A stretch of DNA of 40,867 nt from Eledone cirrhosa (GCA_964016885.1 CAXHJY010001265.1:1-40867); one strand, 5' to 3'; shown: positions 2,803 to 39,942, counted from the stretch's first letter. The notes: generated by a model from the sequence alone, not told the origin. Translations and numbers: made by a program.

Positions 2803-3177
2803 TATATATATTTATATCTATATATATATATATTTATATATATATTTTTATCTATATATATATATTTATATATATATATATATTTATATCTATATATATA
2901 TATTTTTATATATTTATATATATATATATTTTTATATATTTATATTTATATATATATATATATATATTTATTTATATATATATATATTTATTTATATATA
3001 TATATATATATTTATTTATATATATATATAAATTTATTTATATATATATATATATATATAAATTTATTTATATATATATTTATATATATATTTATTTATT
3101 TATATATTTATATATATTTATTTATATATATTTATTTATATATTTATATATTTTTATTTATATATTTATATATATAT
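2598..3177. repeat. Interrupted (TA)n tract
   Basis: TA repeat with TTTA interruptions. Confidence 0.97.
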
Positions 3178-3537
3178 TTTGTTATACTTTGGGAGGGCCA
3201 TGTTGCCAATAAGAAACACACGCACCGGTTGCTTTCACTTCAATTTATTATAATAAATTTATAATAAATTTATAATTTTCTGGTTGGTTGGTTGGTTCCA
3301 CAACCAGATAGTTGTTTATATATTGTCATAGTTCTTTCGTCAAACACTCTGTGACCTCTTCAGTGACTGGGGATTCCTTTCTTTGTTTCTGTGCCTCTCC
3401 TTTGTTCTGTCCTACGCCATTTTGTTTCTGTCCTTTTTTTGTTTCTTATTGGCAACATGACCCTCCCAAAGTATAACAATATCGATTTTAACACACGATT
3501 TCAGATAAAGAATCTTGCTAAACAAATTCAGAAACGA

Positions 3538-3541
<4 letters not shown>
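3178..3541. mobile_element. Truncated Penelope-like element (family A), 3' region with an inverted terminal segment
   Basis: 3178-3430 matches 5850-6100. 3440-3541 is an inverted copy of the 3' end plus a ~60-bp extension matching 5788-5849. Flanked by (TA)n on both sides. Confidence 0.8.
3325..3367 (-). ncRNA. Minimal hammerhead ribozyme motif (family A)
   Basis: GUCA-CUGAAGA-GGUCACAGAGUGUUUGAC-GAA-AGAACU-A-UGAC. Confidence 0.65.
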
Positions 3542-4752
<1,211 letters not shown>

Positions 4753-4920: not shown

Positions 4921-5996
4921 TATATTATTGTTGAAAAACTGGGGCGGTAGGGGTACAAATGTACAAATGAAAAAAAATATATATATTTGATCAGTTTAAT
5001 TTTACTGTTTCTTCACCAATGGTCATTTAGCCCATTCTACCCTATCTGACCATCACAACAAAACCTCCAATATCATTCTCACTCTATCACATTTTCATCT
5101 TAGTTTTCACTTTCCTATCATCCAAAAATGACATGTACCCTATTTTGATTTAGACTTCTTCATTTATATATATTCTCTTATCACTCTACTCACACTATCA
5201 CCCACTCTCTCTCCCCCTCCCCCTCCCTCTCTCTCTCTTTCTCTTTCTTTCTCTCTCTCTTTCTCTCTTTCTTTCTCTCTCTTTCCCTTTCACTCACTCA
5301 CTCACTCACTCACTCACTCACTCCACACTCACTCTCTCCACACTCACTCATCATCATCAATAGACCTATCGCTGAATACCAGAATATTCCCCAGGAAGTA
5401 AGGACTTATTGTAGAGATTTGAACTATTAAAGAAACCAAACACCAGTGAAGTCACCCCCCCCTCTCTCTAAAAGAGAGAGAGAGAGACGGAGAGTGAATA
5501 TGAAGGATGTAAAGAATAGACGAGCGAGAGCTATGAAAGGATAGTGAGAGAATGTGACGAAAGGAGAGATGTAACGAAAGATATAGAGAATAAAGACTTA
5601 CATGCCAACACGAGCAAGAATGAGGGGCTCATTTTACTGACATGGCTTTAAAAATGAGGCTTGTTTGCATAATTGCAAACGAATCGAATATTATTATTAA
5701 TATTCGAAAAACTCAGATTACATTTTTTGTATTCAGCCATGTAGAGCGAAAAAAAAAAATGTTTTTAAAATTATATATATATATATATATTTCGTTTCTG
5801 AATTTGTTTAGCAAGATTCTTTATCTGAAAACGTGTGTTGAAACCGATGTTGTTATACTTTGGGAGGGTCATGTTGCCAATAAGAAACACACGCACCAGT
5901 TGCTTTCACTTCAATTTATTATAATAAATTTATAAATTTAGGAATTTATAAATTTCCGGTTGGTTGGTTCCACAACCAGATGATTGTTTATATATT

Positions 5997-6039
5997 GTCA
6001 AAGTTCTTTCGTCACACATTCTGTGACCTCTTCAGTGAC
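5997..6039 (-). ncRNA. Minimal hammerhead ribozyme motif (family A)
   Basis: GUCA-CUGAAGA-G-GUCACA-GAAUG-UGUGAC-GAA-AGAACU-U-UGAC; same sense as the adjacent GIY-YIG fragment. Confidence 0.7.
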
Positions 6040-6220
6040 TGGCGATTCTTTTCTTTGTTTTTGTGCCTCTCCTTTGTTCTGTCCTACGCCATCTTGTTTT
6101 TGTGTGTGTTGTGTGCTTAGTTTGCGCATGTTACATCCGGGTGTCTGTGTGTGTTTATATTTATTTACATGTTACTGGTTGTTTGTTTGTTCTATGTGCG
6201 TGTGTGTTTTCATTTTGTCC

Positions 6221-6416
6221 TTAATTGTAAGTTGTGATGTTGCTGTTCCATTCATATTTTCTATTTAATTTTGGTTGGAGTTCATTTATGTTTATTGCCT
6301 CTGTGATTTGTCTAAACATTGCGTCTTTTCTGTGTGTAGATTCTATTTTTATTTCTATGTTCTCTAATTTACCCTTATGTTCTATTTTAGCATGTTGGTA
6401 GAGTACAGACGATTCT
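6221..6416 (-). pseudogene. Inverted second copy of the GIY-YIG fragment
   Basis: Minus strand reads ...RQITEAININELQPKLNRKYEWNSNITTYN*. Confidence 0.8.
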
Positions 6417-6419
6417 AGG

Positions 6420-6656
6420 GAACGGATAAATGAACACTGGCGAGACCTTCAAGATAGTAAAGAATCGTCTGTATTCTACCAACATGCTAAAATAGAACAT
6501 AAGGGTAAATTAGAGAACATAGAAATAAAAATAGAATCTACACACAGAAAAGACGCAATGTTTAGACAAATCACAGAGGCAATAAACATAAAAGAATTAC
6601 AACCAATATTAAATAGAAAACATGAGTGGAACAGCAACATCACAACTTACAATTAA
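6420..6656 (+). pseudogene. C-terminal fragment of a Penelope-type GIY-YIG endonuclease
   Basis: Manual translation ERINEHWRDLQDSKESSVFYQHAKIEHKGKLENIEIKIESTHRKDAMFRQITEAINIKELQPILNRKHEWNSNITTYN*. Shows the R-x-x-EH, H-x4-H, R-x3-EA-x-x-I and LN-x-K-x-EW motifs of PLE endonucleases. No start codon (5'-truncated). Confidence 0.85.
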
Positions 6657-6839
6657 GGACAAAATGAAAACACACACGCACATAGAACAAACAACCAACC
6701 AGTAACATGTAAATAAACAAATATAAACACACACACACACCCGGATGTAACATGCGCAAACTAAGCACACAACACACAAAAACAAGATGGCGTAGGACAG
6801 AACAAAGGAGAGGCACAAAATCAAAGAAAAGAATCCCCA

Positions 6840-6882
6840 GTCACTGAAGAGATCACAGAATGTGTGACGAAAGAACTTTGAC
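6840..6882 (+). ncRNA. Minimal hammerhead ribozyme motif (family A)
   Basis: CTGAAGA at 6844-6850, GAAA at 6869-6872, stem I gtca/tgac; about 185 nt downstream of the endonuclease stop codon. Confidence 0.7.
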
Positions 6883-7530
6883 AATATATAAACAATCATC
6901 TGGTTGTGGAACCAACCAACCTACCGGAAATTTATAAATTCCTAAATTTATTATAATAAATTGAAGTGAAAGCAACTGCTGCGTGTGTTTCTTATTGGCA
7001 ACATGATCCTCCCAAAGTATAACAATATATATATATATATATATATGAATGAATGAAAGGGTAGAGAGATAGATGATAACGAAAAGAGAAGAAAGTGTAA
7101 GAGGAGAGAAGGTTGAAAGTGTAGACAGAATATGAAGAATAGACGAGAGAGATGAAATGATAGTGAGAGAATACGAATAAAGATGTGACGAAATATAGAG
7201 AATAATGACGATGAATGAACGGATAGAGAAAGAATATGAAGAGAGTGTGCATGTAAAAATGGAGAGTCGTGGAGAGAGAGAGATGACTGTAACTAGAAGA
7301 AAAAAGCGAAGTTTTGACAAAAAGTGTTTGGTTGTGCTGTTTTAGTTTTTCTTTATATGGAAAAAGAAGCTTGTTTGTCATAGCGTGTCAAGGATAGCGA
7401 GTTACTAAAATTAGTCATTATTGATCATGTTGGTTGTTGTTGTTATTGCTTTATTTCATTTGTTTGTTTGGCATAGTGTGTGCGCGCTTTTCTCTTTGTC
7501 TCTCAGTCAGTCTGTATTTACCCATCTACA

Positions 7531-7995: not shown

Positions 7996-8043
<48 letters not shown>

Positions 8044-8044
8044 C

Positions 8045-8185
8045 ATGGAAACTATATTTATAAAACCATATTTATTTCATTATACATATTTCAAGGACAC
8101 CAAGTCAAATTATGGTGCGCTTTCATCAGATAAAATATAATATAGATCAGTTTTATAAATATGGTTTTATAAATATAGTTTCCAT
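8045..8185. mobile_element. Short hammerhead-bearing fold-back element (family B)
   Basis: 30-bp perfect inverted repeats 8045-8074/8156-8185 enclose a hammerhead; homologous to 28471-28600 and 29043-29353. Confidence 0.8.
8073..8137 (-). ncRNA. Minimal hammerhead ribozyme motif (family B)
   Basis: UAUUUUAU-CUGAUGA-AAGCGCACCA..UGGUGUCCUU-GAA-AUAUGUAU-A-AUGAAAUA. Confidence 0.8.
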
Positions 8186-8609
8186 TTGTTAATATATCGT
8201 ATTTTTACTCCAATAATTTGTTGAGTGCTTTATATCAGTTATAAAAATATTTGCTTTTAATTTGAATTATTGATTCTTTGGGCAAATATCCATTGAGCTT
8301 TTCTCCTGAGAAACATAATCATCATGCATATTATATATATATATATGTGTGTGTGTGTGTATGAGGCATGTATGTATTCACGCACACACATTAACATTAA
8401 CATTTACCTTAATTGCCACTGGGGCGATTTAATAACAAGAACACTCTCGTCCTTCCCTCTTCTCTCGTTTGTAAACTTATTCTTATGCACACATGCAGAA
8501 AGCATTACTTGATTGGTTGGTGAATTTTGTTGAACAAGCGTGAGCGCGCCTCGTCTGCTTCTGATGTAGAACTAGAAGCATATTTTCTTTCATAATTCTT
8601 AATAGCAAT

Positions 8610-8640
<31 letters not shown>

Positions 8641-9036
8641 AGTGCTAGAGTGAGAGAGATGTGGTGGGGACGGTGGAGCACTATCTATTTCTATCTAAAT
8701 ATCCTCTGAGAAATAGAAAGACACATGAAACTCAATAAGAAATGTTTCTAAGATTCTGATTTAAAACATTTATACTCCTCCTCCCTCCTAGTCTCTCCCT
8801 GTCTTGGATCAATTAAGATTTATTGTCCTCTGGTGTGGGTGTATTTGTGTAACCAGGTATTTTATGGTGGAGCTGACCCCCGTGTAAACACCCACCAGGT
8901 GAAGTTCAATATAACATTTTAAATGTTTCATTTATAAGACATACATGCGCGCACGCTCGTACACTTTCTATCTCCCCCCCCCCCCATCTCAATGGTTGAG
9001 AAAGTACGATAAGGTATTATTATTAGCCAATCCAAA

Positions 9037-9613
9037 GGGCAGTGGATTGGCAGTATCGGTAGAGGGTCGGACGCCATGCTTTGCAGCATAGAGTTACGGC
9101 TCTTTATGATTTGAGCTCAAATCCCGCCGAGGTTAACTTTGCCTTTCATCCTTATGGGGTCGATAAAATAAAGTACCAGTCACGCACTGGGGTCGATTTA
9201 ATCGACTTTCTCCCCCCCCCCCCCCCAAAAAAAAAAATTTACTGGCCTTGTGCCCATATAAGAAACCATTATTAGCCAATCCAAAGGGCAGTGGATTGGC
9301 AGTATCGGTAGAGGGTCGGACGCCATGCTTTGACGCATAGTTACGGCCCTTGCCATTCTGAGTTCAAATCCCGCCGAGGTTAACTTTGCCTTTCATCCTT
9401 ACGGGGTCGATAAAATAAAGTACCAATAATGCACTGGGTAATTTCTGGCCTTGTGCCAAAAGTAGAAACAACTATTAGTCAATCCCGCCAAGGTTAGCTT
9501 TAACTTTCATCCTTACGAGGTCGATAGAATAAAGTACCAGTAATGAACATGGGTCGATTTAATCGACTTTCCCCACCTCCAAAATTGTTGGCCTTGTGCC
9601 TAAATCAGAAACC
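9037..9613 (+). mobile_element. Three tandem copies of the dominant tRNA-derived SINE
   Basis: A-box-like tggcagtatcggt, B-box gagttcaaatcc, tail ggccttgtgcc..agaaac. Copies at ~9037, ~9286 and ~9480, separated by attattagccaatcc-like sequence. Confidence 0.9.
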
Positions 9614-10232
9614 ATTATTAGCCAGTATGTCACGCGGTCAGATCTGCTTCAGTTGCTTGTTTCCTTTTTATTCTCTTTAAATATAGCACCTACAGTAATG
9701 CCACACCCGAGATATCAGTCACCATCAGAGACACACATTAACAAAATACCGGGAACTTACAAACCATTAAAGTTATCCTCATTGAGGTTAATCTCATAAA
9801 AGATTAAGACTATGGTGTTTATACATGTCTGCGCATGTCACCACCATTCTAATCCACTCTCTAAGAGGAGATATGATTGAAAAATAGAAAATATTAGCAC
9901 ATTATTCCAGATAAATGTAATGACTTGTAAAATATGAATGCTAGTTCACTGTTCCAATCTAAAAACTCTTGGAAATTACAACTTTGGAGGAAATAGATGG
10001 AACTGGAGACATGATACATTTAAAATGATGAAAGGACTTGAAAATATGCAGAAGAGTTCATCCATCGCCATCACACTTCTTTCTTTTTGGGGTGGGGGTG
10101 GAGGGTGAGGAAGGAAAAGGACCCTAAATATCATGAAATATATGGTACAAGTTGTTTGTCTTACTTTACTCTAGTTTTCACTCTTCTATTTCTAACTTGC
10201 ATTGTGCTGGCTTTCCCCCGAATAATCCTAAC

Positions 10233-21048: not shown

Positions 21049-21568
21049 ACTCTTGGGTCTCAAATAATAGGGGGTTGGTGGAATAAGGGATCTCTTGATT
21101 TAAAAAACAAACAAACACAGAATTAGTCGTTTAGTTCACCTATTGAGGCCCCATCGCACCCTATTTTATAGCGTATAGGATTTTTTTGCAATATATAATT
21201 TTCTACATTTGGCACAAGGCCAACAATTATCCCAGTGCATTACTAGTACTTTATTTTATCAACCCCGTAAGGATGAAAGGTAAAGTTAACCTCGGTGGGA
21301 TTTGAACTCGGACCATAAAGAGGTGTAACTCTATGCTGCAAAGCATGGCGTCTGCCCCTCTACTGATACTGCCAATCCACCACCCTCATATATATAATGT
21401 TTTTTTTAATGTATAAAGAAAATTGATTGTAGCCGGACTGCTACCACTTAACAAATTAAAATTTCGCTGTAGATAGATTAGCAAAATTTAATAAGCGGGG
21501 GTGTGGTGTAGGGTGGACGAAAAAATCTGAAAAATTAATAAGCCGGGGTGGAGATGAGACCCAAGAGT
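21049..21568. mobile_element. MITE-like element with 14-bp TIRs, interrupted by a SINE
   Basis: actcttgggtctca (21049-21062) / tgagacccaagagt (21555-21568), with subterminal aata(a)g(c)gggg motifs. Confidence 0.65.
21200..21386 (-). mobile_element. Dominant tRNA-SINE copy
   Basis: Full consensus on minus; probable TSD atatataat (21191-21199 / 21390-21398). Confidence 0.9.
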
Positions 21569-21886: not shown

Positions 21887-21919
<33 letters not shown>

Positions 21920-21960
21920 AAATCTTAACCATTTAACATCTCAGGATATGTCATGTATCA

Positions 21961-22021
21961 TTATATTTTGTCTGATGAGGATGTACTGTTGTACCTCCGA
22001 AATATGTATAATAAAATGTAA
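21961..22021 (+). ncRNA. Minimal type I hammerhead ribozyme motif (family C)
   Basis: UUAUAUUUUGU-CUGAUGA-GGAUGUAC-UGUU-GUACCUCC-GAA-AUAUGUAU-A-AUAAAAUGUAA; predicted cut after A22010. Confidence 0.85.
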
Positions 22022-22087
22022 TTGATCACAAGACTATCTATTTTATTAATATTTGTATATTAATAAAATAGATGTTCTTTTGATCAA

Positions 22088-22148
22088 TTACATTTTATTA
22101 TACATATTTCGGAGGTACAACAGTACATCCTCATCAGACAAAATATAA
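22088..22148 (-). ncRNA. Minimal type I hammerhead ribozyme motif (family C), mirror copy
   Basis: Identical reverse complement of 21961-22021. Confidence 0.85.
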
Positions 22149-22355
22149 TGATACATGACATACCCTGAGATGTTAAATGGTTAAGATTTTATATATATAT
22201 ATATTTGTATAGAGATAGCACCCATGTCGTTGTGCATAACACCACTTCAGTATATACGGTTCCCCTTTTGTGAAGGTAAGAATGAAAAAAAAAGGGGGGG
22301 GGGGGGATATATTACAGGTTTTTGTATAATACGACCCACTAGAGTACAGACGTGG

Positions 22356-26725: not shown

Positions 26726-27035
26726 GAAGAAGAGGAAGATTTATGGAATATATAAGGCGAAATGAGGAAGACTAATTTGAAGAAACTGAGGCCTACGAAG
26801 GAGATGAGACTGAGAGAAGCTATACGTGGTGCTAAAGATCCGCTTACCTGTGATAGAATGGTGATAGGGATGATGGATTTTGGGAGTTATGATATATCTA
26901 CGTTTGTAAATAGACGCCAGCACGAGGAGTAATTTACCCAATTTTCTTATTACCTATTACAATCGATAGATATTACATTAATTTTCTGTTTGGGACTTTC
27001 ACATTTTCAATTTTACATTTGTGTTTCTCGCCCAG

Positions 27036-27615
27036 AATTGGCAGTATCGGTAGAGGGTCGGACATGTTTCCAGCATAGTTACGTCCCTTTACGATCTGAG
27101 TTCAAATCCGGCCGAGGTTAACTTTGCCTTTCATCCTTACGGGGTCGATAAAATAAAGTACCAGTAATACACTGGAATAATTGCTGGCCTTGTGCCAAAA
27201 GTAGAAATAATTATATTCCAATATTATAGGGTGGTGAATTGGCAGTGTCGGTAGAGGGTTGGACGCCATGCTTTCTAGCATAGTTACGTCCCTTTACGAT
27301 CTGAGTTCAAATCCCGCCGAGGTTAACTTTGCCTTTCATCCTTACGGGGTCGATAAAATAAAGTACTAGTAATGTACTGGGTAATTGCTGGCCTTGTGCC
27401 TAAAGTAGAAACAATTATATTCGAAGGGTGTTGATAAAGCATCGGACACCATGTCTCGTGACATAGTTACGTCCCTTTACGTTCTGAGTTCAAATCTCGC
27501 CGAGGTTATCTTTGCCTTTCATTCTTACGGGGTCGATAAAATAAAGCACCAGTAATACACTTGGGATCGACTACCCCCACCCCCATCGCCAACCTTCTGC
27601 CTAAATCAGAAACCA
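27036..27615 (+). mobile_element. Three tandem copies of the dominant tRNA-SINE
   Basis: Copies at ~27036, ~27229 and ~27425, each followed by attatattc. Confidence 0.9.
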
Positions 27616-28004: not shown

Positions 28005-28470
28005 ATTGATGCTCCAGGTTACTATTAATTGAACAGACCTATGATCAAAAACATTCCAGTATAGTGAGCTCCATATCTCCCCCTCCTCACCATCCCACCT
28101 TCCTACCATTCATATTGTGGTTCGGACCATATCTGATGTCTCCCTCCACATTTATTTTTACGATAGCAGGATGTGATTTCAGGAATTTTGGCTACTATTT
28201 CTAGCCGGCCGAGTAACCACGTAAGGGTTCCTTTTTGTGTTGTAATAGTTATGAGAGGAAATTATTCGTTTTAATCATAGAATTGGATATAACCTGATGT
28301 ATTTATTATGATTAAATCTAATTTATTATTCAATTAATTCGTATTAGGGTCAATGTAATCGACTGTTCCCTTCCCACGAATGTTGAGGCCTTTTTGCTTC
28401 TGGAAGAAATTACTATACAGCTAATCACAACCACCAACACTAAAAGAATATATATATATATATATATATA

Positions 28471-28600
28471 TAAGTAGAAGGGGTATTTAATTTGTTGGAA
28501 GTCCGACAAATATAAATATTTATAAAACCATATTTATTTTATTATATATATTTCAAGGGTACCAAGACACCTTTGGTACGCTTTCATCAGATAAAATACA
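28471..28600 (-). mobile_element. Family B element fragment between (TA)n tracts
   Basis: 28471-28568 is the reverse complement of ~29257-29353. Confidence 0.8.
28535..28598 (-). ncRNA. Minimal hammerhead ribozyme motif (family B)
   Basis: UAUUUUAU-CUGAUGA-AAGCGUACCAA-AGGUGUC-UUGGUACCCUU-GAA-AUAUAUAU-A-AUAAAAUA. Confidence 0.85.
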
Positions 28601-28855: not shown

Positions 28856-29011
28856 ATATTAAAATATAAGTATTAATAAAATAGATGTTCTTTTGATCAA
28901 TTACATTTTATTATCCATATTTCGGACGTACTGTTGTACATCCGAAATATGTATAATAAAATGTAATTGATCAAAAGAACATCTATTTTATTAATACTTA
29001 TATTTTAATAT
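28856..29011. mobile_element. Family C fold-back (76-bp arms) hinged on the hammerhead stem II loop
   Basis: ...tttcggacgtac-tgtt-gtacatccgaaa...; the arms match 21991-22050. Confidence 0.9.
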
Positions 29012-29042: not shown

Positions 29043-29349
29043 ATGGGAACTATATCTATAAAACCATATTTATTTTATTATATATATTTCAAGGGTACCA
29101 AGACAACATTGGTACGCTTTCTTCAGATAAAATACAAAGTTTGTTTTATATTTATAAAACAAACTTTGGTACGCTTTCTTCAGATAAAATACAAAGTTTG
29201 TTTTATATTTATAAAACAAACTTTGGTACGCTTTCATCAGATAAAATACAATGTTGTCTTGGTACCTTTGAAATATATACAATAAAATAAATATGGTTTT
29301 ATAAATATTTATATTTGTCGGACTTCCAACAAATTAAATACCCCTTCTA

Positions 29350-29353
<4 letters not shown>
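29043..29353. mobile_element. Family B element with 57-bp tandem reiterations and an inversion
   Basis: Units start at 29109, 29166 and 29223; the sequence is inverted from 29249. Confidence 0.85.
29071..29134 (-). ncRNA. Minimal hammerhead ribozyme motif (family B, CUGAAGA)
   Basis: UAUUUUAU-CUGAAGA-AAGCGUACCAA..UUGGUACCCUU-GAA-AUAUAUAU-A-AUAAAAUA. Confidence 0.82.
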
Positions 29354-29393
<40 letters not shown>

Positions 29394-31668: not shown

Positions 31669-31777
31669 AGCAGAAGTTAAGATCTTAGAGGTATTCTAGT
31701 CGTGTCTATTCCACCCTGTTGGCCGTTGTGTTCTACGTTATTATTACGTTATTATTCCTTCCCCCTGGATTATTCCT

Positions 31778-31955
31778 GGATTGGCAGTATCAGTAGAGAG
31801 TCGGACGCCATGCTTTCCAGCATAGTTACGTCCCTTTACGATCTGAGTTCAAATCCCGCCGAGGTTGACTTTGCCTTTCATCCTTATGGGGTCGATAAAA
31901 TAAAGTACCAGTAATGCACTGGGTAATTGCTGGCCTTGTGCCTAAAGTAGAAACA
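31778..31955 (+). mobile_element. Dominant tRNA-SINE copy with a 15-bp TSD
   Basis: gttattattccttcc at 31748-31762 and 31956-31970. Confidence 0.92.
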
Positions 31956-32006
31956 GTTATTATTCCTTCCTCCTCTTTTAAGACAGTATCACCTGTAATA
32001 ATACGT

Positions 32007-32076
<70 letters not shown>

Positions 32077-32619: not shown

Positions 32620-33296
32620 CGAATCCAGTGCATTACTGGTACTTTATTTTATCGACCCCGTACGTATGAAAAGCAAGGCTAATGTTAAATTTTCTTTTAC
32701 TTTTTGGTATTTAAAATACGTTCATCTTATGGTTAACTTAAAATAAGAGATAGACACAAACATTAATAAAAAATTTAACATTTGTTGGAAATTGTTTGTT
32801 CTTTCAAAAAGCCGCACAGAATGGCATCGGAGGCCGCAGATCCCCCATCTTTGTTCTAACCAGTCAGTCAATACACCAACACACTGATTTAGGCTCAAGG
32901 CCAATAATTTGGGTACTTTATTTTATCGACTCCGTAAGGATGAAAGGCAAAGCTAACCTCGGCGGGATTTGAACTCAGAACGTACAGGGCCGTAACTATA
33001 TGTTGCGGATGGTATTAAGGCTGTGAATTGGCAGTTGTTAGAGCTTGGTGGTCCGACCCTCTACCGATACCGATCATCCACTGCCCTTTATCAGTAGATT
33101 ATAGATAATTGTTTCTAATTTAGGCACAAGGCCAGCAAATACCCAGTGCATTACTGGTACTTTATTTTATCGACCTCGTAAGGATGAAAGGCAAAGTCAA
33201 CCTCGGCGGGATTTGAACTCAGATCGTAAAGGGACTTAACTATGCTGGAAAGCATGGCGTCCGACCCTCTACCGATACTGCCAATCCACCTGCCAA
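32620..33296 (-). mobile_element. Cluster of three minus-strand SINE copies
   Basis: Copies at ~32620-32680, ~32890-33087 and 33110-33296; the last has TSD tagattatagataat (33095-33109 / 33297-33311). Confidence 0.88.
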
Positions 33297-33835
33297 TAGA
33301 TTATAGATAATGATTAATAATTTGTATTGTGTAAATATTTCTCTCAGGTTGAGCCGTGTTTCTTGGTTTGTGTCAGTCTTTGCGCTTACGTAACTAACAA
33401 CACACTTTGTGTATGCCACCGCAAGCAACAACGTTTTGTTTCTTTGTTTATTTATTCAGAACTATTTATTCTGAACGCAGAAGATCATATTGTTTATTGC
33501 GCAATATTTTATGATGAGTAATGCTAACATGACCGAACACTGGTCAGTTTTTCTTTCAGTTAAGGATTTTTGGTGCGCGTGTGCGCGCGCACTTAACAAG
33601 TGGTACAATGTGCTTTTGAGCAAAATACTTTAATTTCATATTGTTGAAAATGAGTATCATCGTCAGCAGTAGCTTTAACCCAAGCCTTTTTTTAAAGGAT
33701 CACGAAGGGTGACAACTCTATCGTTGACGTTATATCCTCTCGTGTCCTTGGCAAAACGCCACATGTTGCAAATGTCCTTTATCCTAAATCTCTTAAAAGA
33801 ATCTCTATCATTTTTTTTTTGCTCAACATTATTTA

Positions 33836-35080: not shown

Positions 35081-35407
35081 CGAGGTTTTTTGAAGCCTGC
35101 TGTATATTTTATCAATCTCTTCTCGATTCACTAAGGTCGGGAGATTGTGAACGAGGGCATTGGAGGTCTCTGACACGACAGCACGACAAGGAAGCGGTTG
35201 GTCAAGTCCCGGTATTTAGATATCTGTTGTTACTTATTTTAAGGCTCACGCGACAATTTTAGGGGACTGAATGGGGTGCAACTTTATATGAAAGTAAACA
35301 TAGTTGATATTTAGTTGGGGTCAGTAGACATGGGTGGTGATGGTATGTGATTGTGTACGAACTAAAAACATTGTTTTGTTTGTGTGTATGTACGTGTGTA
35401 AACACAG

Positions 35408-36124
35408 AACAAACAAAACGGAGTCATTATACATAGTTAGGTCCACGATATATATATCAAATGTATATATTGAGTTAGAAACTCAATAGTCTCTTACAAT
35501 AAAATAGCTCTGGGAAAGAGATTTTTCCGAGCTGTATTTTATAATTGAATATAAAAGAAAAAGAACACAGATATATACATATGTGTTCAAATAGTAAGGG
35601 ACCAGATTCGCTCAGGTTAAAAGAATACTAACTATAGACAATAGGGTTTGCCAGCCTCAATTTAAGAATAAATCAAGAAAATAAATACAAACCGGAATTG
35701 TGGTAACTACCAATCACCCAGACAGCTTTGGTAATGCTGTTTCGCAAAATTAATTGTGAAGAGGAATACCAATTCTTGCTCATCAGTGGGTGAAGAATTA
35801 GTATCCTGGACACTTCTAAGTATATTAAAAAACTGAATAGTGTGCGTATATATAATAACGCACATGGTATCGGAACATAGCGTGTCCCACAAACTCACAC
35901 CACTAAAAATTGCAGCCAGGTTTACTCGACATTTGAATTAGCTCAACAAATTAACGGAGCCGATTATATCAAAGGTAAATATTGAGTTAGAAACTCAAAA
36001 TAGTCTCTTACAATAAAATAGCTCTAGGAAAGAGATTTTTCCGAGCCGTATATTATAATTGAACACATATGCATATATCTGTGTTCGTTTTTCTTTATAT
36101 TCAAATAGTAAGGGACCAGATTCG
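35408..36124 (-). mobile_element. Retrozyme-like / non-autonomous PLE-like 1.3-mer
   Basis: Direct repeats 35467-35610 and 35979-36124 (period ~512) enclose a canonical hammerhead; no coding signal; ends at (TA)/(GT)n. Confidence 0.65.
35708..35803 (-). ncRNA. Canonical full-stem type I hammerhead ribozyme
   Basis: UACUAA-UUCU-UCACCCA-CUGAUGA-GCAAGAAUUG...CAAUUAAUUUUGC-GAA-ACAGC-AUUACCAAA-GCUGU-C-UGGGUGA-UUGGUA. All core nucleotides, GUC triplet and three stems are present. Confidence 0.92.
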
Positions 36125-36135
36125 ATATATATATT

Positions 36136-36187
<52 letters not shown>

Positions 36188-36497: not shown

Positions 36498-36992
36498 CAC
36501 ATACATACATACATGTATAACTAACCATCTATTGTACCTATACGCACAATTATATTAATGAAACTTCCAGAGTAAAACAAAATTCACGAGTATGCCCCCC
36601 CCCCATACTGTTATATGTGGGGAGGGTCATGTTATAATATTGCCAGAAAAATAGTGTGTATATATGTATATATATATACATACATATATACACACTATAT
36701 ATATATATATGTGTATATGTATATATGTGTGTGTGTGTGTGTGTATATATATATGTGTGTGTATTTATATATGTGTATGTATGTGTGTACATATATATAT
36801 ATATATATATATGTGTGTGTATATATCTGTGTTGTGTGTGTGTGTATATATATATATACTTAATACATTAACAGAGAAAGCTATTAGCGATACTCCGACC
36901 AACTTCCATCTCACTCAACAAACATTAGGAAATACCTAAGTATATTCCCAATTATACGTATGGGGTGCTAACTATATTGTATTATGTGGAAG

Positions 36993-37179
36993 GGCCGGTG
37001 GATTGGCAGTATCGGTAGAGGGTCGGACTCCATGCTTTGACGCATAGTTACGGCCCTTGCCATTCTGAGTTCAAATCCCGCCGAGGTTAACTTTGCTTTT
37101 CATCCTTACGGGGTCGATAAAATAAAGTACCAGTAATGTACTGGTATAATTTGCTGGCCTTGTGCCTAAAGTAGAAACA
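36993..37179 (+). mobile_element. Dominant tRNA-SINE copy
   Basis: Nearly identical to 9286-9471; imperfect TSD att(a/g)tgtggaa. Confidence 0.92.
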
Positions 37180-37214
37180 ATTGTGTGGAAAGTCGGCTGT
37201 ATTATTTTATGAGA

Positions 37215-37252
<38 letters not shown>

Positions 37253-37498
37253 GCGTGTGCGTGCGTCAAGAAATTATTCCCAGATCTATAAATAATGAAT
37301 AATATAGCTGACAATAGAAATGATGAAAGACGCTCTCCTGTTTAAGTAATCTAAACATCAACCATGAGTTGAACTAACCGAGATAGTTTTTTATTGTCCA
37401 ACCACCTCCCCTAGTAGTAGTAGGACAATAACTGTGCCGTCTGTGTGTCAGGTCACAGGATAGTCTCTGTACCGGAGAAAGAATTTTTGACAGGATGC

Positions 37499-37760: not shown

Positions 37761-37897
37761 ATTGTTTCTACTTTTGGCACACGGCCACCAATTAGCCTAG
37801 AGCATTACTGGTACTTTATTTTATCGGCCCCGTAAGGATGAAAGGCAAAGTTAACTTCGGCGGGAATTGAACTCAGAACGTAAATGGCCATAACTCT

Positions 37898-37972
<75 letters not shown>

Positions 37973-38365
37973 GTTTGTACTTTGGCACAAGGCCAGCAAA
38001 TTATCCCAGTACATTACTGGTACTTTATTTTATCGACCCCGTAAGGATGAAAGGCAAAGTTAACCTCAGCGGGATTTGAACTCAGACCGTAAAGGGACGT
38101 AAATATGCTGCAAAATGTGTGTGTGTGTGATTATAATGTACCATTACCACCTGTATAGAAACGAACGTAGATATAAAAAAATGGATTTAATTTGATAACC
38201 TTGGCTCTCTTCATTGTCGAATAGAATGCTTTACGGTATTCATCTTTGCTCTCTCAGTTCAAATTCCGCCGAGGCCAACTTTGCCTTTCATCCTTTTGAG
38301 GTCGATGAAATAAAGTACCAGTAATTCCTGAGATAATTGCTGGCCTTGTGCCAAAAGTACAAACG
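37761..38365. mobile_element. Three 5'-truncated SINE copies (37761-37898 -, 37969-38112 -, 38254-38365 +)
   Basis: Consensus B-box and tail motifs. Confidence 0.88.
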
Positions 38366-38404
<39 letters not shown>

Positions 38405-39410: not shown

Positions 39411-39762
39411 AAATTGGAAACAATTTCATGTTGAAAGACCACATTAAGTTACTTATAATATAATAAAGCCGCATTCAAGAAACTATAATTATATATTCTT
39501 AAAATGTTGATAGTCACTGGCGTTCAAAGCCCCCACGGGTTCTCACCAACCAGCCTCGGGTGATAGTGGCTCCAGTTAAGCAGGAATTTAATGTACATTC
39601 TAGAATCGTATTAGAACTAAAACATGAGTGTGGAAAGTGCTGAAAGGGCCCTTATGATTTATTTTTATTCTGGCTGTCAGTATGGATTATGTCGTTGAAT
39701 TTTCTTTTACTCTTTGGTAATTAAAATACCCCTCCCCCATCTTATGGTTTGAATTAAAATAA

Positions 39763-39942
39763 TTGTTTCTACTTTTGGCACAAGGCCAGCAATTATCCCA
39801 GTGTATTACTGGTACTTTATTTTATCAACCCCGTAAGGATGAAAGGCAAAGTTAACCTCGGCGGGATTTGAACTCAGACCATAAAGGGCCGTAACTCTTT
39901 GCTGCAAAGCATGGCGTCCGACCTTCTACCGATACTGCCAAT
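39763..39942 (-). mobile_element. Dominant tRNA-SINE inserted in an older repeat (TSD aataa)
   Basis: Flanks 39690-39762 and 39943-40062 join to match the uninterrupted 32682-32860. Confidence 0.9.

Follow-up and report, generated by a model that had tools for sequence, protein, structure and literature searches.

A two-armed, 5'-truncated Penelope-like element insertion in Eledone cirrhosa, from a family whose reverse transcriptase appears to represent a distinct Nematis-related lineage

The window, that is, the whole stretch of Eledone cirrhosa DNA that was analysed (40,867 nucleotides, GCA_964016885.1 CAXHJY010001265.1:1-40867), contains a large palindrome whose left arm (5847-6416) and right arm (6461-7028) enclose a 44-nt loop (6417-6460) and which is bordered by (TA)n on either side. 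The first-pass annotation, made from the sequence alone, had described arms of about 565 bp with a 44-bp loop; these were verified, with the correction that the left arm has an additional 60 nt (5787-5846), which correspond to the start of the element's open reading frame (ORF). We identify the palindrome as a single non-autonomous, 5'-truncated insertion with two arms, located in (TA)n and derived from a Penelope-like element (PLE). The features of the locus, together with a second insert of the same family elsewhere in the window, are as follows.

3176-3542, no strand assigned: a further insert with two arms, shorter than the palindrome and belonging to its family
5772-5786, no strand assigned: (TA)n target, left side (from the sequence)
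5787-5846, minus strand: 60-nt tail, present in the left arm only; element ORF bases 27-86; marks the long 3' end
5847-6416, minus strand: left arm, an inverted 5'-truncated copy from reference position 3495 to the short end
5997-6039, minus strand: minimal type I hammerhead, family-typical, CUU cleavage-triplet subtype; cleavage predicted
6221-6416, minus strand: C-terminal 60-odd codons of the GIY-YIG domain plus stop, left arm (E 5e-18, no-self profile)
6417-6460, plus strand: 44-nt loop, consisting of the junction base and of additional 5' sequence from the right arm, which reaches further
6420-6656, plus strand: last 78 ORF codons (second half of the GIY-YIG domain, with its R, H, H, E and N residues) plus stop
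6593-6626, plus strand: right-arm patch with the haplotype of another subfamily (5/5 arm differences at segregating sites)
6657-7002, plus strand: 3' UTR / pseudo-LTR, with a 5'-truncation hotspot near 6775-6795
6840-6882, plus strand: minimal type I hammerhead, CUU subtype, stem II G6852A (sequence/structure pattern; cleavage predicted)
7003-7028, plus strand: ATG and first 26 ORF bases; short 3' end
7029-7046, no strand assigned: (TA)n target, right side (from the sequence)

The 60-nt tail maps to r1-86 of a natural copy of the element, L129, at 97% and translates to [10 protein letters not shown]...QKRN; the ATG of the left arm lies at 5872-5870. In the second insert, a minus arm (3176-3431) carries a hammerhead of the CUA subtype and the short end, and a plus arm (3440-3542) carries the tail. 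The other hammerhead-core repeats of the window have no DNA in common with the palindrome family, and no contiguous ORF was found for these other families among 48 loci.

An assembly or read artefact was considered, given that the window is the entirety of a small unplaced contig. Junction 6417 is unbridged among the listed contigs of four other runs, which proves nothing; the contigs of these runs extend upstream of 6418 into YIGET-coding sequence. However, the junction sequence has a single occurrence in the assembly, the two arms differ by 14 substitutions and five indels over 556 aligned bases and are therefore not a read fold-back artefact, and 36 similar inverted inserts of the family lie mostly on chromosome-size contigs. 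We thus regard an artefactual origin as hardly credible.

A stop-free frame of 78 codons had been claimed to start in the loop, and it is present at 6420-6653 (ERINEH...NITTYN), followed by a TAA stop at 6654-6656; from stop to stop the frame spans 84 aa, the first 6 codons being supplied by the inverted arm. The suggested comparison with GIY-YIG profiles gave a divided answer. Pfam returned 0 families for both the 78-aa peptide and the left-arm frame, whereas a profile of 96 relatives, from which two octopus rows were excluded, recovered the peptide at E 3e-22 as the best of 984 six-frame pieces of the window, the next unrelated piece having an E of 0.35. The Pfam GIY-YIG family itself scored above cut-off in one of seven relatives scanned (P0118). 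In the AlphaFold model of the intact protein (residues 440-1229, pLDDT 92.5), model residues 682-781 superpose on the I-TevI catalytic domain 1ln0 (Z 9.9, rmsd 2.2, 90 aligned). The two Cys of the CCHH signature are conserved in 97/98 and 95/98 relatives, and the His, the Glu and the Asn in 95/98 each; the second CCHH His is visible in alignment A1. The endonuclease occupies residues about 1120-1220 of 1,229. As the palindrome keeps 78 of about 1,229 codons, the locus is a dead product of the element and not itself the autonomous machinery that the annotation had thought to identify behind its family A.

The hammerhead had been placed on the sense strand, about 185 nt after the stop. The distance is in fact 184 nt, and the right arm does have such a motif; the left arm carries a mirror-image copy too, which the annotation had missed. 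The right-arm motif consists of stem I (6840-6843), the core CUGAAGA (6844-6850), GAAA (6869-6872) and the 3' strand of stem I (6879-6882), with a predicted cut after 6878. Its form, with an extra base at 9/10.1, a 6-bp helix II, a 4-bp helix I and a 1-2-bp helix III, agrees with the norm of metazoan PLEs as described in the parts of PMC4209133 (Cervera and de la Pena 2014) compared here, namely a minimal motif that has an extra nucleotide at 9/10.1, a long helix II of 6 bp, a short helix I of 4-5 bp and a 1-2-bp helix III. Sequence apart, it does not differ from those motifs; its helix III loop is not palindromic, and two subtypes, CUA and CUU, exist; Hydra-clade motifs also have U at the cleavage site (PMC8557442, file S2, in part). 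An Rfam scan yielded no match at gathering score for hammerheads or any other family, nor any SECIS match, and the predicted folds showed no extra stability relative to shuffles (z -0.41 for the right arm, -1.27 for the left), as is expected of a minimal motif with a 1-2-bp helix III. The stem II position 6852 is G in 178/180 other copies, so that the right-arm G6852A is rare (2/180). Both palindrome arms belong to the CUU subtype. The motif would be of the dimer type, and RNA processing by it may be weak or protein-assisted.

From 6418 onwards, the right arm corresponds to the 3' end of an element family with very many members, of which longer copies extend upstream into YIGET, a Cys linker and a full reverse transcriptase (RT). 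In the 3.0-Gb genome, 9,983 exact matches to the two 43-base hammerhead subtypes were counted (one insert may hold two or more), divided at equal abundance into 5,085 and 4,898, with 0 matches for reversed controls; the left-arm sequence accounts for 5,085. A first look produced 2,678 DNA and 25,195 protein candidates. Loci were picked by similarity or by exact hammerhead match, and the sample therefore leans to young copies. Among 20 stretches selected for long frames, an uninterrupted ORF from ATG (1,227-1,318 aa) was found in 13, and all checked motifs were present in 8. The intact ORF of about 1,230 aa encodes a telomerase-like RT, a short CxxC linker and, at the C-terminus, a GIY-YIG endonuclease; in copy L129 the unit measures 4,081 bp, and the ATG falls within the last pseudo-LTR bases. 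Pseudo-LTRs, partial tandems, inverted 5'-truncated copies and a tail are all present in the family. The annotation's view that a PLE with RT and GIY-YIG had inserted 5'-truncated with an inverted copy is therefore sustained, RT-linked full-length relatives having been found. Pfam gave a weak RVT_1 match in one of three long copies and nothing else, and a PDB sequence search with the family profile gave weak RT matches only. The best database relative, at 67%, is an Octopus vulgaris protein.

The modelled RT found its best VIA match in a telomerase RT (Z 14.9, rmsd 4.1, 286 aligned), and the top Foldseek matches were also TERTs. In the element, 131 residues separate the RT3 Asp from the RT4 Gly. 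Across 120 relatives, this spacing is 129-135 residues in 108/108 proteins that allowed its measurement; the corresponding figures are 120-151 for 48/48 such proteins in a set of 145 representatives that are more remote, and 60-63 for 75/75 in a set of 120 Neptune-type proteins; a Nematis-like proxy from the same genome, L244, has 61. Counted by eye in the text of Fig. S1 of PMC8557442, it is about 61-63 in canonical PLEs, 84 in Naiad, 118 in human TERT, 152 in Tetrahymena and 63 in C. remanei. The same source, in the parts compared, describes canonical PLEs as lacking a fingers insertion, with IFD-like regions sporadic in Coprina. The additional segment contains the conserved motifs ELGL, CP.R, G..P..T and RW..W and is predicted with high confidence by AlphaFold as mostly helical. 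Its position is that of the TERT insertion-in-fingers domain and its size is similar, although the modelled version would differ in being mostly helical. Since it superposes only weakly on that of TERT (Z 4.0, rmsd 9.8, 107 aligned), shared ancestry is no more likely than an independent gain. The insertion fold alone retrieved nothing above Z 4.7 in 48,161 chains and no Foldseek match at E 0.001. We conclude that the RT appears to define a distinct Nematis-related lineage, apparently undescribed, with a 70-residue insertion at the telomerase insertion-in-fingers site.

Relatives of the lineage occur in octopus, sea cucumber, jellyfish and marine metagenomes; the named ones are Octopus, Holothuria and Sanderia, and most others are marine records. 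At 50% identity, 2,491 clusters reached an E of 1e-30 or lower, some of which may belong to other PLE clades. No published description of the lineage was found in the sources compared, outside which lay Repbase, Dfam and Arkhipova 2006, and this is the main limit on its novelty. Lineage motifs had 0 matches in the supplement of PMC8557442, the sequences of which are those of Naiad, Chlamys and Hydra only. In the parts of the reports compared, octopus repeat annotation lists PLEs at order level only (PMC13282606), and a 2026 preprint still counts eight PLE clades (10.64898/2026.07.22.740005).

The ending LNxKxEW had been taken as a tentative sign of the Naiad/Chlamys branch. This placement is refuted by the domain order, and the ending is simply where the final conserved Asn of the GIY-YIG domain lies; INNRLE stands at the end of a Nematis-like element from the same genome. 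According to the parts of PMC8557442 compared, Naiad and Chlamys are defined by an N-terminal endonuclease, a CxC block and the lack of a canonical hammerhead, and Naiads use DKA and may contain selenocysteine. A Naiad/Chlamys element, possibly a selenoprotein, could be argued for from its (TA)n targeting, very high copy number and fingers insertion, all of which are Naiad traits, as are the tail and inverted copies. Here, however, the endonuclease is C-terminal, with YxG(E/Q)(T/S) after (Y/L)VDD in 89/98 relatives, a hammerhead is present, the CxC motif is absent from the ORF of copy L130, and DKSG instead of DKA was found in 68/98 relatives. The insertion is also about 47 residues longer than that of Naiad. 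As to the selenoprotein check recommended in the annotation, no stop occurs at any of six conserved Cys in 117-124 aligned copies. Membership in Naiad/Chlamys is accordingly deemed to be of negligible probability.

For the remaining clades, same-genome Neptune-type, Nematis-like and Hydra-type elements, labelled here by their motifs, served as proxies. The linker of the lineage reads C-x4-C-x2-C-x7-C, with 7 residues to the next Cys in 80/98 relatives and 5-11 in all, and its three linker Cys are invariant in 98/98, which sets the lineage apart from Penelope/Poseidon, characterized by having no linker Zn-finger. From the linker CxxC to the next Cys there are 6-8 residues in 17 lineage proteins versus 23-27 in 11 Neptune-type proteins, so the long linker between CxxC and CCHH that is typical of Neptune is lacking. 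A Hydra affinity was hinted at by the KDHK and RW motifs but was ruled out by an hhalign E of 6e-4 only for the Hydra-type proxy, and the traits of the Hydra clade (no CCHH, a CxCX5C linker, DKT) were not observed in the lineage. The hhalign comparison gave E 2.6e-26 and 25% for the Nematis-like proxy and E 7.8e-24 and 21% for the Neptune-type; mean identities to these two nearer proxies are 25.0 and 24.4%. An RT tree was built from 25 rows over 253 columns and included one Nematis-like and one Hydra-like in-genome proxy, with neither a named reference nor a telomerase outgroup. In it, the lineage forms a long-branched monophyletic group (100) whose sister is the Nematis-like proxy (95); the Neptune-type P0148 was omitted since it has no anchor motif. 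An endonuclease-only tree gave a support of 60. A search of the protein database with the endonuclease region returned 41 candidates, none significant and no named Nematis protein among them. Because the linker length is Nematis-like, the proxy identities are nearly equal and the endonuclease tree lacks resolution, we describe the lineage as Nematis-related, without asserting membership.

When the ends of the family were mapped, 195 de-duplicated ends comprised 87 short, 82 long and 26 read-through ends. The short ends stop at ORF base 26 in 79/87 cases and the long ends at base 86 in 57/82, the remainder of the latter being mostly 1-5 bases short of base 86. Both 3' ends finish in AATAT, and their last bases are therefore common to the element and the (TA)n target, into which 74/87 short ends run. 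The 60 bases between the two ends form the tail; together with the pseudo-LTR they code for the beginning of the ORF, and rotifer PLEs show the same arrangement (PMC3846280, in part). Both ends could be seen in 36 inverted inserts, one nested pairing being excluded. Of these, 34 combine one long with one short end (binomial p 1e-8 against 50%), and one of the remaining two involves a long end that carries an internal deletion. Both inserts of the window obey this one-tail rule. It does not follow that the tail is always on the short inverted arm, an idea that was rejected, as the tail is on the longer arm in 20/34 pairs and on the shorter arm in 14/34, the palindrome being among the 14. Of 52 copies that were selected by their hammerhead and whose 5' end is visible, a set that includes both arms of some inserts so that neighbours count twice, 32 have an inverted piece at the junction, 7 abut TA runs and 13 show neither; some of the inverted pieces are just 20-30 tail bases.

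The arms of a pair differ at 0-1 segregating sites in 20/22 measurable cases (the nested L054 pair excluded), and therefore both usually copy one source; the median arm difference is 1.5%, versus 4.2% for random copies. The palindrome is one of two exceptions, with 5/41 segregating sites that differ, all within 6593-6626. Its left arm is an ordinary representative of a single subfamily, whereas its right arm combines that subfamily's 3' part with the haplotype of another subfamily in the 34-bp patch, which presumably arose by a template switch or gene conversion. An origin of the arms from two different RNAs was dropped since the differences are confined to 34 bp. No A-to-G bias indicative of editing scars was seen among the 14 arm differences.

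These data bear on whether two independent insertions could have met head to head in one (TA)n tract by chance. The great abundance of the family, its (TA)n targets and the five linked subfamily sites at which the arms differ would be compatible with such an encounter, as would the fact that the left arm is nearer to copy L006 (6/554) than to its own partner (14/556). But no target DNA separates the arms, 36/41 segregating sites agree with the 5 differences falling within 34 bp, and the one-tail rule applies in 34/36 pairs, which makes this explanation very improbable.

A more serious alternative is fold-back copying, in which a single cDNA turns back to serve as its own template, or self-priming takes place on an antisense RNA, and the copied arm loses the tail at resolution. 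It has been proposed for rotifer PLEs (PMC3846280, in part), and it would account for arms that are almost always of one subfamily and for the 20/34 pairs with the tail on the longer arm, which also fit this process. Against it, the left arm of the palindrome has the tail, which is absent on the right, while the right arm has 43 bases absent from the left, and in 14/34 pairs neither arm contains the other; further, the junction shows no palindrome or clear microhomology. Since each arm thus contains sequence that the other lacks, two primings are favoured and fold-back is considered unlikely.

The palindrome is a dead 5'-truncated PLE insertion, and we think it probable that it arose by two target-primed reverse transcriptions on the opposing strands of a single (TA)n site, one from each of two start points that lie 60 nt from each other in the element RNA. 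In this model the protein encoded by the element, likely a dimer to judge from part of PMC11167929, would nick both target strands, each 3'-OH would anneal or dock at one of the two start points, and both cDNAs would terminate early and then be joined head to head. The arms would usually derive from the same source RNA, the right arm of the palindrome having gained a 34-bp patch of another subfamily. The 20/52 hammerhead-selected copies without an inverted piece at the 5' junction are a counterpoint to this twin priming, and target-site duplications are indistinguishable within (TA)n. The model draws on the in vitro study of a lizard PLE, in those parts of PMC11167929 that were compared: both strands are cut and extended at AT-rich DNA, reverse transcription begins at two internal sites bounding the tail, the protein is a predicted dimer, and the hammerhead is protein-assisted and dispensable for insertion. 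That study saw no strand difference in start site and no homology of start site to target, which counts against the strand-coupled start sites and the ATAT annealing that we would propose for the palindrome family; a dimer is proposed by analogy with the lizard element. The hammerhead of the family was likely not needed for the palindrome insertion.

The palindrome structure, the tail and the hammerhead are already published PLE features, and the palindrome itself is ordinary PLE debris; the additions to the published features are the one-tail rule and the long fingers insertion in a lineage with a C-terminal endonuclease. As far as the compared parts of PMC8557442 (Craig et al. 2021) and PMC11167929 (Frangieh et al. 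2024) extend, the closest known systems are the following. Nematis has the same single ORF with RT followed by GIY-YIG, a linker Zn-finger, a CCHH and a hammerhead, and the short C-x4-C-x2-C-x7-C linker of the lineage resembles that of Nematis_Cr/C4 (Fig. S2). The lineage differs from it by its RT3-RT4 spacing of 129-135 (61-63 in Nematis), by having DKSG and LPPK(F/Y) where Nematis has DKG and GxKF/Y, by an RT4 that reads GxIG.x3.G and a KDHK motif, and by a tail of 60 nt rather than 30-40 and an ORF of 1,230 aa that contains an Asn/Thr-rich stretch. Canonical PLEs with a C-terminal endonuclease share the pseudo-LTRs, the inverted 5'-truncated copy and the tail. Neptune has the same linker Zn-finger, CCHH and C-terminal endonuclease, with an RT3-RT4 spacing of 60-63 and a linker of 23-27 residues, versus 129-135 and 6-8 in the lineage. 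In PAc, the Poseidon of Anolis and thus a member of another clade, there are likewise two 3' ends that bound a tail within the first ORF codons, targets are AT-rich, and the hammerhead is near the ORF start. Unlike in PAc, the start points of the palindrome family are separated by 60 nt and each finishes in AATAT, which could pair with the target, and the strict use of one end of each kind in inverted inserts is unreported for PAc in the source as compared.

The lineage might rank as a ninth PLE clade, distributed in molluscs, echinoderms, cnidarians and marine metagenomes. Such a clade would be characterized by a C-terminal endonuclease, a conserved, folded, telomerase-sized insertion and an asymmetric dimer priming both strands 60 nt apart, with the two-armed insert as its normal product; we hold this to be possible, with the balance of probability somewhat against it. 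The lineage bears on PLE classification in marine invertebrate genomes, and on whether PLEs and telomerase inherited the fingers insertion from a common ancestor or acquired it several times. The origin of the tandem and inverted inserts of PLEs is still debated. Thousands of young copies, two sharp 3' ends, a one-tail rule that is nearly strict and no fewer than 8 motif-complete ORFs make the palindrome family a direct means of testing twin priming against fold-back, by genomics as well as by biochemistry. In two metatranscriptomes, the matches to the family consisted solely of fragments that were 90-95% alike.

The 5' ends of the Penelope-like element (PLE) under study, which carries a C-terminal GIY-YIG domain, cluster directly upstream of AA(G/A)ATGGCG, 55-75 nt ahead of the hammerhead, in 18 of the 52 hammerhead-selected copies, where some inserts contribute both arms.

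Window 6775-6795 and 3431 (positions 3820-3845 of the natural reference copy L129): 5'-end cluster

The motif is similar to a YY1 site, and the cluster may reflect either a transcription start in the pseudo-LTR that gives short non-coding units or a stall of the reverse transcriptase (RT). In some inserts, pseudo-LTRs of different subfamilies are joined, with the CUU hammerhead subtype upstream and CUA downstream, while full-length tandems or large inverted duplications form the layout of others.

PLE inserts with mixed-subfamily, tandem or inverted layouts
Locus L130, 4572-4942 versus 492-900
Loci L145-L146
Locus L147 (contig C1704)

The L130 ORF harbors, at residues ~250-450 ahead of the RT, an in-frame Asn/Thr/His-rich low-complexity stretch made of AAC-type repeats. 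It is reminiscent of the Asn-rich inserts of rotifer PLEs (PMC3846280), which occupy a different position.

Besides this PLE, the genome contains further families, labeled according to diagnostic motifs: several are Neptune-type, one is Hydra-type and one Nematis-like, and many of these elements have open ORFs of 758-775 aa.

L198, L234, L235, L201, L244: Neptune-type, Hydra-type and Nematis-like elements

The window also contains other repeats with a hammerhead core.

8042-8188, 28448-28596, 29052-29376: second family, inserted in (TA)n, palindromic or tandem
21892-22217, 28856-29011: third family, palindromic
35740-35786, minus strand: additional hammerhead-like core within a partly duplicated and inverted repeat (35400-36150)

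The second family, with 1,863 genome candidates, has no DNA likeness to the PLE, and no contiguous ORF was found for it, the search covering 48 loci of the window's other hammerhead-core families. The third (967 candidates) is ~75% alike to the second across 160-190 bases.

No hammerhead core was detected by scanning a further palindrome, which adjoins long (TA)n tracts, and a SINE-like repeat of 190-400 bases occurs in at least 10 copies in the window, several as inverted pairs.

2367-2600: 234-base palindrome, 91%
9019-9624, 21191-21386, 27035-27567, 31777-32065, 32912-33298, 36990-37266, 37761-38403, 39756-39942: SINE-like repeat copies
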